A DNA stretch of 48,682 nucleotides. Source: a virus. Taxonomy: Duplodnaviria; Heunggongvirae; Uroviricota; Caudoviricetes. Positions 9,295-11,647 of the stretch are shown here, piece by piece. Under the pieces are notes generated by a model. It was not told the origin of the DNA. It made no database searches and saw only the letters and a list, made by a program, of their open reading frames with translations. Numbering within the stretch: position 1 is the stretch's first letter; the number at the start of each line of letters is the position of its first letter. Location: the IMG/VR virus record IMGVR_UViG_2511231131_000006, positions 1 to 48,682 of that record, one strand, 5' to 3'. The translations under genes and the position numbers were made by a program.

Positions 9295-10029
9295 ATGGAG
9301 ACTGTTTTTGACGCACTGAAAGCGATGGGAAAAGCCACGTCGGTAGAGCTGGCTGCGCGACTTGATATCAGTCGTGAAGAAGTACTGAACGAGCTGTGGG
9401 AACTGAAAAAGGCTGGCTTCGTTGATAAAAGCGTATACACCTGGCGTGTGGCTGATAACAACGTTCAGCAGGAACAGCCAGCGCCAGAAGAAACCACCAC
9501 GGCAACAGAAGCGAAAATCTCAGAGTGCGATTTAACCGCGACGATTGAACAACGCGGACCACAAACGGCGGATGAACTGGCTACGCTGTTCGGTACAACA
9601 TCCCGCAAAGTTGCTTCAACGCTGGCAATGGCAATCAGCAAAGGTCGTCTGATTCGCGTAAACCAGAACGGTAAAATTCGTTACTGCATACCAGGTGATA
9701 ATTTACCAGCAGAGCCGAAAGTTGAATCGGTAGCGGAAACCGATGGTAAAGCCTTTCCTCAGCCAGCCGGTGTTGCGTTACCGGTACAGAAAGATGCAAC
9801 ACAGGAAGATATTAAAACAGAAACTGTGGCGGACATTGTGCAGTCGCTGCCATCGTTTACTGCAACGCGAGAAGATGATTTGATTTTGCCATCGCTGCAT
9901 ATGGCAAATCGCGAACTGCGTAGGGCGAAGAATCATGTCCAGAAGTGGGAGCGAGTCTGCGCCGCGCTGCGGGAGCTGAACAAGCACCGGGATATGGTTG
10001 CCGGGATTTGTCGGAAGTCCGGGCAATGA
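9295..10029 (+). CDS. Hypothetical protein, N-terminal winged-helix-like
   Basis: 244-aa ORF with Shine-Dalgarno GGAGG, acidic and Thr-rich middle, basic C-terminus. Confidence 0.45.
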
Positions 10030-10190
10030 GCGGATGGTGCAGGCCTGAAATCATGATACTAACAATGAAGGTAAAATGCATCGGCAGTCTGATTGGTCGT
10101 AGTGAGGCGGCGGTCAGGATGAAAGCCCAGGTTAAGGGAATAAGCCTGATTCTGCGGGGTGATTTTCACCAGTCAACAAAATATCCGTAG
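10026..10190 (+). CDS. Small ORF translationally coupled to the upstream gene
   Basis: ATG at 10026 overlaps the upstream stop (ATGA). 54 aa, [33 protein letters not shown]... Confidence 0.25.
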
Positions 10191-10888
10191 CGCGATAACG
10201 GTCAAAAATTATGGCGCTGACACTTTTGTGCCACTGGAGATGACTGTACCTAAGTTCAGGGGAGAAGAACACGTCCGGTGGGATGGTCGGGCCAGATTTA
10301 AAGGGCAGGTCATGGCTCCAGCCTGTACGCTGGCAATGGAGGCTGCCTGGCGGGAAATTGATATGGGAACCACGCCACTCAGGGATTTACTGCCGGTCCA
10401 GAGAATAAATTCCTGTTACGGTTACACCACTGTGATCTTGCAAGTGCAGGAAAGTAGGTCTACACGGTAACGCGAGTGCGTGTAACTTTTGATGTCATTC
10501 CCGTAGAAACACCGGACAAATTTTCGCTGACAGGTCATGCAGAAGGTATAAATCTGCAGATTATGGACAATTACGGATATCCGGCAAGAGCCGGAAAAAG
10601 CATGCCGCCTCTAATTCTCAGTGGAAGATGGACTTGATTATACTCATTGCATTGTCAGAAATAGTTATCCATTAAAGGCTGGCTATTCCAAACAGGATGT
10701 TGATTACAAAAATGTAATCAACATGTAAGGTTTATACTCTTCAATATGCGTATAATTTTCCTTATTTTGTTGACTTTAAATAACAAGCTATGCACGAGGT
10801 AAAGTCGGATAAGTTTATCTGGATGTAATATATATTATTTGTAGTGTTTATAACTTTATTTCATGATAACCAATAAAAGGAGTTTTTT

Positions 10889-11647
10889 ATGAGGAACATA
10901 ATGGCAGGTTTTTTAATATTCCTGTCTTCTGCTGCTTATGCTGATATCAATCTGTATGGTCCTGGTGGCCCGCATACAGCCTTGCTTGATGCAGCCAAAC
11001 TTTATGCCGAAAAAACAGGTATTATAGTGAACGTTCATTACGGCCCACAGAACAAATGGAATGAAGATGCCAAAAAAAATGCAGATATCTTGTTTGGCGC
11101 ATCAGAACAATCTGCTCTGGCTATCATTCGGGACCATAAAGACAGCTTCAGTGAAAAAGATATTCAGCCTCTTTATCTGCGAAAAAGTATTTTACTGGTA
11201 AAGAAAGGTAATCCTAAAAATATCCGGAGTATTGACGACCTGACCAGACCTGGGATTGGCGTAATTGTTAATGATGGTGGTGGTACCAGTAATACATCAG
11301 GCACTGGCGTCTGGGAAGATATTGCCGGACGTAAAGGGAATATAGAAACTGTCGCCGCAATCCGAAAAAATATTATTTTATATGCGCCCAATAGCGGAAC
11401 TGCACGTAAGGCTCTTGAGAATCAGCCTGGAGCAGATGTCTGGATAACCTGGGCTGACTGGGCAGCCAGTAATCCAGAAATTGGTGATGTCGTGGAAATA
11501 GCGCCAGACTACGTGATATGGCGTGATATGAACATTACAGTACGTCAGGATGCAAATGATGAAACCCGTCGATTTGCAGAATGGCTACAAACCGATGAAG
11601 CGGCGCCTGCATTCAAAAAATATGGCTGGACCAGGAAAGGCACTTGA
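10889..11647 (+). CDS. Orphan periplasmic solute-binding protein, ModA / molybdate-tungstate-binding-like
   Basis: 252-aa ORF with signal peptide MAGFLIFLSSAAYA and Shine-Dalgarno AAGGAG. Family-1 SBP pattern including a C-terminal RRFAEWLQTDEAAPAFKKYGW that resembles the ModA C-terminus. AT-rich upstream region; no transporter genes adjacent. Confidence 0.55.
   Translation: MRNIMAGFLIFLSSAAYADINLYGPGGPHTALLDAAKLYAEKTGIIVNVHYGPQNKWNEDAKKNADILFGASEQSALAIIRDHKDSFSEKDIQPLYLRKSILLVKKGNPKNIRSIDDLTRPGIGVIVNDGGGTSNTSGTGVWEDIAGRKGNIETVAAIRKNIILYAPNSGTARKALENQPGADVWITWADWAASNPEIGDVVEIAPDYVIWRDMNITVRQDANDETRRFAEWLQTDEAAPAFKKYGWTRKGT

Follow-up and report, generated by a model that had tools for sequence, protein, structure and literature searches.

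The closest described relatives of the gene considered here are PEB3 of Campylobacter jejuni and AcfC of Vibrio cholerae. PEB3 is presented in PMC12469816, in a statement that cites Min 2009, as a transporter component for 3-phosphoglycerate-type metabolites (phosphorylated C3 acids), and is needed for normal colonisation of chicks (PMC12469816). AcfC, which is encoded on the mobile pathogenicity element VPI-1 (Vibrio pathogenicity island 1) and is linked to intestinal colonisation, was found to be periplasmic by fractionation, mediates chemotaxis to mucin, and binds in the enzyme-linked immunosorbent assay (ELISA) the sulfated glycans heparin and chondroitin sulfate and also mucin (PMC5976639). 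A third member, Paa (AdfO), is known from the attaching-effacing and Shiga-toxigenic Escherichia coli; in the strain EDL933 it is encoded by Z2053 (adfO) on O island 57, that is, the prophage CP-933O in ompW, always together with the hok-like gene ckf (PMC8565820, PMC9144400). The present analysis concerns one gene and its surroundings in the IMG/VR virus record IMGVR_UViG_2511231131_000006, a tailed-phage (Caudoviricetes) sequence whose whole stretch of 48,682 nucleotides is called the window below. An earlier note, made from the letters of the window alone, had described this gene as an orphan resembling the molybdate- and tungstate-binding protein ModA. By its sequence the gene is almost certainly paa/adfO, and its product is a predicted solute-binding protein of the PEB3/AcfC family that may act in the periplasm of the lysogen through a host-encoded partner.

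The 252-residue product of the open reading frame (ORF) is 100% identical to Paa/AdfO of the Sakai prophage Sp9 (ECs1772 / ECs_1772), and over 2.3 kb the DNA is 100% identical to that of the PPompW prophages, in which the gene is annotated as Paa/AdfO. The Prokaryotic Genome Annotation Pipeline (PGAP) names the protein 'AcfC family adhesin Paa', and its protein cluster (P0001) has 616 members. Because the sequence is identical to paa/adfO of Sakai and EDL933, the feature is an already known, established and routinely typed virulence-associated gene of pathogenic E. coli, and the view of it as an uncharacterised ModA-like orphan had to be given up. It is typed routinely in the enterohaemorrhagic (EHEC), enteropathogenic (EPEC) and porcine enterotoxigenic (ETEC) E. 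coli, so that its rediscovery adds nothing to the catalogue. No difference was found from Paa/AdfO of the attaching-effacing and Shiga-toxigenic strains: the protein is the same and so is the 2.3-kb context, including a fimbrial remnant and ckf. The whole 1.7-kb arrangement occurs in 572 of 5426 complete E. coli genomes, and the paa upstream region with the gene start in 603 of the same 5426. The gene and the signals at its start are as follows:

Positions 10889-11647, plus strand: paa/adfO coding sequence, 252 amino acids, a PEB3/AcfC-family solute-binding protein.
Positions 10877-10882, plus strand: Shine-Dalgarno sequence AAGGAG, 6 nt before the ATG at 10889, kept in the plasmid alleles.
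Positions 10889-10942, plus strand: predicted Sec-type signal peptide, residues 1-18, MRNIMAGFLIFLSSAAYA followed by D, with the predicted cleavage between AYA and D.

The start of paa is disputed, RefSeq Sakai and PGAP using the ATG at 10889 (252 residues) and the PPompW GenBank records the ATG at 10901 (248 residues); since AAGGAG lies 6 nt before 10889, the longer form is favoured. The signal peptide, judged by inspection, has one basic residue, a hydrophobic core and an A-x-A motif, with no lipobox cysteine, and the homology to the mature PEB3 and AcfC crystal constructs begins at about residue 19 of Paa. Thus, the earlier description of a periplasmic binding protein with a signal peptide agrees both with this Sec-type signal and with the match of Paa to the Pfam family SBP_bac_11 (expectation value, E, of 5.5e-34).

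Among the solved structures, the only strong matches of Paa are PEB3 (E 1.2e-81) and AcfC (E 3.5e-81), over residues 11-248 and with 52-53% identity, and the family profile matches the same two proteins with E values of 1e-110 to 1e-120. The AlphaFold2 model of Paa, built with 39 homologues, has a mean predicted local distance difference test (pLDDT) score of 91.2, and in the Foldseek comparison it superimposes on AcfC (4jb7) with a template modelling (TM) score of 0.97 and a root-mean-square deviation of 1.0 A, and on the PEB3 entries with TM scores of 0.95-0.96. A second tier of structures consists of ModA proteins (TM 0.71-0.79, 12-18% identity, probability 1.0), followed by sulfate- and iron-binding proteins. 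As predicted from its sequence and model, Paa is a two-lobed class II solute-binding protein of the PEB3/AcfC family, and the fold is thus not the unrelated one that would have spoken against the earlier description.

In the 39 homologues, which have 51-100% identity to Paa, the motifs GPGGPH (24-29), GPQ (52-54), GASEQS (70-75), SNTSGTG (134-140) and PNSG (167-170) are invariant or nearly so, and WITWxDW (185-191) is likewise conserved. In the model each of the first five motifs ends at the start of a helix (helices 28-43, 54-64, 73-81, 141-147 and 169-178). Loops at helix N-termini, where the helix dipole is felt, are the typical small-anion pocket of this fold, and the invariant loops of Paa are predicted to form such a pocket. 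Within the fourth motif S134, T136, S137, G138, T139 and G140 are invariant in all 39 homologues. The PEB3 entry 3fir is a K135E mutant that differs from the wild type at GAG[K/E]SNTSG, and therefore T138/S139 of PEB3 are the Thr-Ser pair of this loop and match T136/S137 of Paa. The exchange T138A/S139A, a ligand-site mutant pair, reportedly abolishes the ligand stabilisation of PEB3. The family complexes that have been solved contain L-phospholactate (PEB3, 3fj7) and D-aspartate (AcfC, 4jb7).

Compared as a whole, Paa and PEB3 (2hxw, 3fj7, 3fjg, 3fir) share 52-53% identity over the entire mature protein, the same fold and the same SNTSGTG loop with its Thr/Ser residues, and both genes are singletons without adjacent components of an ATP-binding cassette (ABC) transporter. 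PEB3 differs in being chromosomal and N-glycosylated; its sequon DFNVS corresponds to DSFSEK in Paa, and its Lys135 to Thr133. AcfC (4jb7), at 52% identity, shares with Paa the location on a mobile element and the link to colonisation. However, acfC shares a transcript with the chemoreceptor gene acfB (PMC5976639), whereas paa stands alone with a putative terminator of its own and with no chemoreceptor gene beside it.

The relation to ModA is more distant. The description as ModA-like held in so far as the Pfam family SBP_bac_11, the class II two-lobed fold and a similar size are shared with ModA (1amf/1wod, 3axf), which is also the next structural tier, and the resemblance that had been seen at the C-terminus was recovered and falls mainly in the final approximately 30 residues, most of the ModA profile matches covering only the profile positions 217-248 with E values of 1e-5 to 1e-4. 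It did not hold as membership, which was rejected since the NCBIfam cutoffs, the profile comparison with the Protein Data Bank, the hhalign alignment and the operon context were all against it. The model TIGR01256 (modA) scores 18.3 bits against its NCBIfam cutoff of 62.5, and NF002920, NF002918 and NF007958 give E values of 0.0015-0.09, their cutoffs being 253-470 bits. The oxyanion-binding residues of E. coli ModA, which we take to be Ser12 and Ser39 in the mature numbering and also A125, V152 and Y170, were compared through an alignment of the N-lobe only, in which Ser12 stands opposite Gly27 of Paa and Ser39 opposite Gln54, so that these two serines are not kept. In E. coli K-12 the arrangement is modABC, and modBC always accompany the ModA gene, whereas paa has no modBC and is never found beside a permease or an ATPase gene. 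Thus, membership fails because of the sub-cutoff TIGR01256 score, the unmatched serines and the absence of modBC. The shared Pfam family, the next-best structures and the weak profile matches might suggest that Paa is a functional molybdate or tungstate binder of the ModA/WtpA/TupA type, sequestering the oxyanion or feeding the host ModBC; besides the low identity (12-18%) to the ModA structures and the residues above, the complexes of its 52%-identity homologues contain phospholactate or D-aspartate and not the molybdenum or tungsten oxyanions, and such a role is extremely improbable. Accordingly, the earlier suggestion of oxyanion sequestration is disfavoured, the reported ligands of the family including neither molybdate nor tungstate.

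It had also been noted that no permease or ATPase gene is adjacent, and this was true for both the window and the homologous loci. In none of 80 loci from 80 species, examined by tblastn, was an ABC ATPase or permease gene found within 3 kb on the same strand, the one nearby match being on the opposite strand. In ten inspected homologous contexts (Edwardsiella, Enterobacter, Campylobacter, an Aeromonas P2-like prophage, Francisella, a V. cholerae tcp/toxT island-like locus, a Salmonella IncFII plasmid and three E. coli plasmids) the gene stands alone between long intergenic regions. Because neither the 80 loci nor these ten contexts, about 90 loci together, have an ABC gene in operon position, the gene is not a part of a complete transporter operon in its homologues, and the orphan status is a trait of the whole PEB3/AcfC/Paa family. 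The only case with a transporter nearby is that of Enterobacter bugandensis (L008 1313-6750), in which a complete ABC operon is followed, 690 bp downstream, by the Paa homologue; this operon has its own 362-residue SBP_bac_11/SBP_bac_1 protein, a fused permease and an ATPase, and is preceded by a two-component system.

Other neighbours recur in particular clades only, the labels of the neighbour clusters being a reading of representative sequences by eye. In a distant clade (L121-L165, 40-49% identity, Alpha- and Betaproteobacteria among others) genes for extracytoplasmic function (ECF) sigma-like proteins (11 loci) and anti-sigma-like proteins (7 loci) are found nearby, and in subsets of it a LysR regulator, a TDT-type transporter and a sulfite-oxidase-like protein recur; these neighbours may hint at another role in that clade, one related to sulfur or stress. 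In Campylobacter the neighbours are DcuC-like and SurE. On the plasmid of ETEC1732 (L002 9694-11271) an Aer-like chemoreceptor with PAS, HAMP and MCP domains is encoded about 2.7 kb from the paa-like gene, beyond repA.

From the family, the predicted pocket and the orphan status the following mode of action may be proposed. The lysogen would express Paa from a promoter within the cassette, whether or not the phage is induced; the protein would be exported by the Sec pathway to the periplasm, would bind there a small anionic ligand derived from the host or the gut, and would act via a membrane partner supplied by the host, which could be a chemoreceptor or an importer. The action of this partner would improve gut colonisation and adherence, the adherence phenotype thus being indirect. 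For Paa as a periplasmic small-anion binder acting through a host partner, taken by itself, we infer an evenly balanced case; the gene identity and this mechanism, put as one statement, are judged somewhat probable.

The main rival is a direct adhesin role, in which Paa is exposed on the surface or released into the medium, possibly via type 2 secretion, binds sulfated glycans or mucin and mediates the early attachment that precedes the attaching-effacing lesions. The names in the literature and in PGAP are in line with it, as are the glycan and mucin binding of AcfC in ELISA (PMC5976639) and the adfO mutant, which, according to the summary of Ho 2008 given in PMC8565820, shows reduced adherence to HeLa cells and a smaller number of secreted proteins. 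However, Paa has in the model and in the Foldseek comparison a complete periplasmic-binding-protein fold with no anchoring or surface-display module, and its invariant residues lie in the pocket loops at the helix N-termini and not on the outer face. Furthermore, AcfC is periplasmic and its deletion left the adhesion to Caco-2 and HT-29MTX-E12 cells undiminished, and PEB3 was also reported to be periplasmic (PMC5976639). The adhesin role is therefore considered rather unlikely.

Several points weigh against the periplasmic-binder reading in its turn. The ligand, the partner and the location proposed for Paa itself are predictions. Both Paa and PEB3 are called adhesins in the literature, and data obtained with anti-Paa were reportedly interpreted as surface exposure. 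No conserved partner gene was found when 455 neighbouring ORFs were clustered, the recurrences being clade-specific only, and the chemoreceptor of the ETEC1732 plasmid was rejected as an AcfB-like partner: it has no periplasmic sensor domain, and it cannot take a periplasmic binding protein because its sensor PAS domain is cytoplasmic. Finally, upstream of paa no complete sigma-70 promoter came out of a two-hexamer consensus scan, and a -35 element is not recognisable there.

The surroundings of paa show how the gene has come into the phage. The features of the region are:

Positions 9295-10029: DUF1627 gene, upstream of the 54-residue ORF.
Positions 10026-10190, plus strand: 54-residue ORF, the surviving 5' part of a truncated phage gene for a 'DNA-binding protein'; it marks the left edge of the insert.
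Positions 10222-10683, plus strand: decayed pseudogene of a chaperone-usher fimbrial subunit.
Positions 10685-11707, plus strand: paa cassette, shared at about 86% identity with paa-like genes of plasmids, where the flanks are unrelated.
Positions 10697-10724, no strand assigned: perfect 12+4+12 inverted repeat ATGTTGATTACA-AAAA-TGTAATCAACAT, left end of the cassette.
Positions 10751-10756, plus strand: candidate -10 hexamer TATAAT, invariant in four alleles and in the best-conserved non-coding block.
Positions 11646-11681, plus strand: intrinsic-terminator-like hairpin with U-run, from the terminator scan, beginning at the paa stop codon.
Positions 11767-11790, no strand assigned: perfect 24-bp palindrome CCGATATGGGAA/TTCCCATATCGG, between the cassette and hok/sok.
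Positions 11836-12138, plus strand: hok/sok (ckf) type I toxin-antitoxin locus, right bound of the insertion.

The guanine-plus-cytosine (GC) fraction is 0.31-0.35 at 10600-11050 (0.31-0.41 for the insert) versus 0.50-0.58 in the flanks. The homology to the phage backbone stops at 10197 and resumes at about 11794, where the homology to hokW of phage 933W begins, and neither 933W nor a related prophage (L017) has the insert. Both the GC dip and this break in the backbone bear out what had been described as a moron of atypical composition between the replication module and hok. The 54-residue ORF, which had been noted as coupled, is present at 10026-10190, its start overlapping the stop of the DUF1627 gene in ATGA; it is named ECs_5721 in the Sakai RefSeq record and matches PHROG 30109 (E 6e-17, residues 14-54), and the related prophage has an intact 93-residue counterpart (L017 3461-3742), the homology to which stops at 10197.

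The coding-like stretches that hop between frames, seen earlier downstream of this ORF, exist at 10222-10683 and are explained as a decayed fimbrial subunit gene, with 86% DNA identity to intact genes for a 195-residue subunit (L003 5923-6510, L004) of a PapB-regulated chaperone-usher operon that is found on chromosomes and one ETEC plasmid. With the 195-residue protein as a tblastn query, residues 24-79 are recovered in frame 1, 80-161 in frame 3 and 163-182 in frame 1, with frameshifts at about 10385 and about 10624 and one in-frame stop within the frame-3 part. Residues 1-23 (the signal peptide) and 183-195 (the C-terminal 13 residues) are missing, so that an intact subunit is not encoded; the C-terminal strand of a chaperone-usher subunit is needed for donor-strand exchange. 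Because both ends are missing and there are two frameshifts and one stop, the stretch is a pseudogene, and PGAP labels it 'fimbrial protein; frameshifted; internal stop'.

The cassette is delimited by the blastn match of the ETEC1732 plasmid (L002 5983-7011) to positions 10685-11707 of the window; it is common to IncF plasmids, where the flanks are entirely different, and its end falls just past the terminator-like hairpin and U-run. To its right the hok/sok locus was recognised by the Rfam family sok (RF01794, 103.9 bits, 11836-11985) and the mok/hok ORF (11926-12138), and the Rfam scan of 9900-12400 gave no RNA family besides sok. The 24-bp palindrome at 11767-11790 (RNA fold of -19.9 kcal/mol, z = -4.5) was considered as the right junction of the cassette and rejected: it recurs in 12 phage contigs from which paa is absent, some of them having hok next to it and others not, and it is therefore an element of the phage backbone and no part of paa.

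Thus, what lies between the replication module and hok/sok is cargo of composite origin, inserted into an ompW-integrated lambda-like prophage of the Sp9 / CP-933O / PPompW type, and paa is its only live gene. The insertion would have cut the gene of the phage DNA-binding protein, leaving the 54-residue ORF, and would have brought in the dead fimbrial subunit fragment and then the AT-rich self-contained cassette made of a putative regulatory block, paa and a putative terminator. The order of a truncated phage gene, a dead fimbrial gene and a plasmid-shared cassette documents how this marker moved. In the record PPompW_132418 (L001 1676-4143) the annotation gives a frameshift for the putative exonuclease gene of the early-left operon, a hint that the prophage of the PPompW type is partly decayed.

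By its position between conserved phage modules, its absence from related phages and its deviant GC content the insert is a moron. With the described lambdoid morons (bor and lom of lambda, the effector and adhesin cargo of EHEC prophages) it shares an autonomous gene of deviant GC content with a putative terminator of its own between the modules, the absence from sister phages and the reported expression in the lysogen (PMC8524897); it differs from them in being visibly composite, with a dead fimbrial fragment, and in that its live cassette is common to IncF plasmids. In uninduced EHEC the paa transcript is induced in the contents of the bovine rumen and rectum (PMC8524897) and transiently in the early stationary phase (PMC2241611). 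The mobile carriers of the family are the lambdoid prophage, an Aeromonas P2-like prophage (L012), IncFII plasmids and the V. cholerae pathogenicity-island-like tcp/toxT locus. In the Aeromonas metagenome contig (L012 5001-5774) a Paa-family gene with 54% identity lies between the replication gene gpA and ogr of the P2-like prophage; the orphan binding protein is thus cargo of a second phage lineage, independent of the first. An accessory slot of a prophage that adjoins a toxin-antitoxin locus, and the recurrence of the family on phages and plasmids, would also suit a gene that serves the phage, Paa being a periplasmic superinfection-exclusion or defence factor beside hok/sok. However, the family is chromosomal and non-mobile in Campylobacter, Helicobacter, Francisella and Edwardsiella, the phenotypes of three homologues concern host colonisation, chemotaxis or nutrient use, and a phage-related phenotype is not reported in the literature, which makes this alternative very improbable.

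The regulatory block at the left end of the cassette had been described as carrying a palindromic operator-like site. The 12+4+12 repeat at 10697-10724 is indeed exact; the window has a single copy of it, and none of 100 shuffles produced it. As RNA it folds with -14.3 kcal/mol (z = -5.9). It is set 12 nt in from the left edge of the cassette, with TATAAT following 26 nt downstream. Comparison of four paa alleles from four contexts left only a part of it conserved: ATTACA-AAAA-TGTAAT, the right arm to TGTAATCAA, the next approximately 30 nt and TATAAT are invariant, and the outer arm positions vary with no compensatory changes, so that the stems are of 12, 10, 6 and 6 bp. The upstream regions of the Escherichia albertii, Citrobacter, Salmonella, Edwardsiella and Enterobacter homologues are unrelated and lack the palindrome. 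Scanning of the viral contigs with the 20-nt core GATTACAAAAATGTAATCAA returned the paa prophages and five unrelated AT-rich phage contigs (L075, L076, L078, L079, L083); in the latter the core falls inside coding sequence (MKVEATFRDYKNVIKLV...) with no paa homologue present, and this match is probably a chance identity.

That this palindrome is the operator of a transcription factor controlling paa is a tentative proposal. Its exactness, length and statistical unexpectedness speak for it, together with the invariance of the inner core and the right arm and the position upstream of the invariant TATAAT within the most conserved non-coding block of the cassette; the want of a good -35 element would fit an activator-dependent promoter. 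Against it stand the six outer arm positions, which vary without compensation, and the absence of a similar site elsewhere in the window or upstream of the more distant homologues, and a junction scar or a structural hairpin is equally possible. To our knowledge, the consensus sites of FNR, CRP, TyrR, Fur, ArcA, the LacI family and CpxR offer no convincing match to the palindrome. The regulation of paa by Fur was excluded experimentally (PMC4382993). The hexamer TATAAT is a candidate promoter element of paa, so assigned from its conservation alone because the consensus scan gave no full promoter. At the other end of the gene the terminator-like hairpin folds with -13.3 kcal/mol (z = -2.0) and is followed by UCUUUUUCC.

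Neither of the two side results, concerning the adhesin label and the composite origin, changes the current understanding without experiments. Nevertheless, the label 'adhesin' may be mechanistically wrong, because no adjacent transporter is found in about 90 loci across many phyla and the invariant residues lie in the predicted anion pocket. It is possible, though speculative, that the Paa-type proteins are transporter-less periplasmic ligand sensors which are spread by mobile elements (the lambdoid and P2-like prophages, the IncF plasmids and the Vibrio pathogenicity island) and plug into a resident chemoreceptor or importer. If so, the palindrome-plus-TATAAT block would be the portable regulatory input of the cassette, the 'adhesin' phenotypes would be indirect, and the acquisition of one gene would re-tune the sensing of the gut niche.

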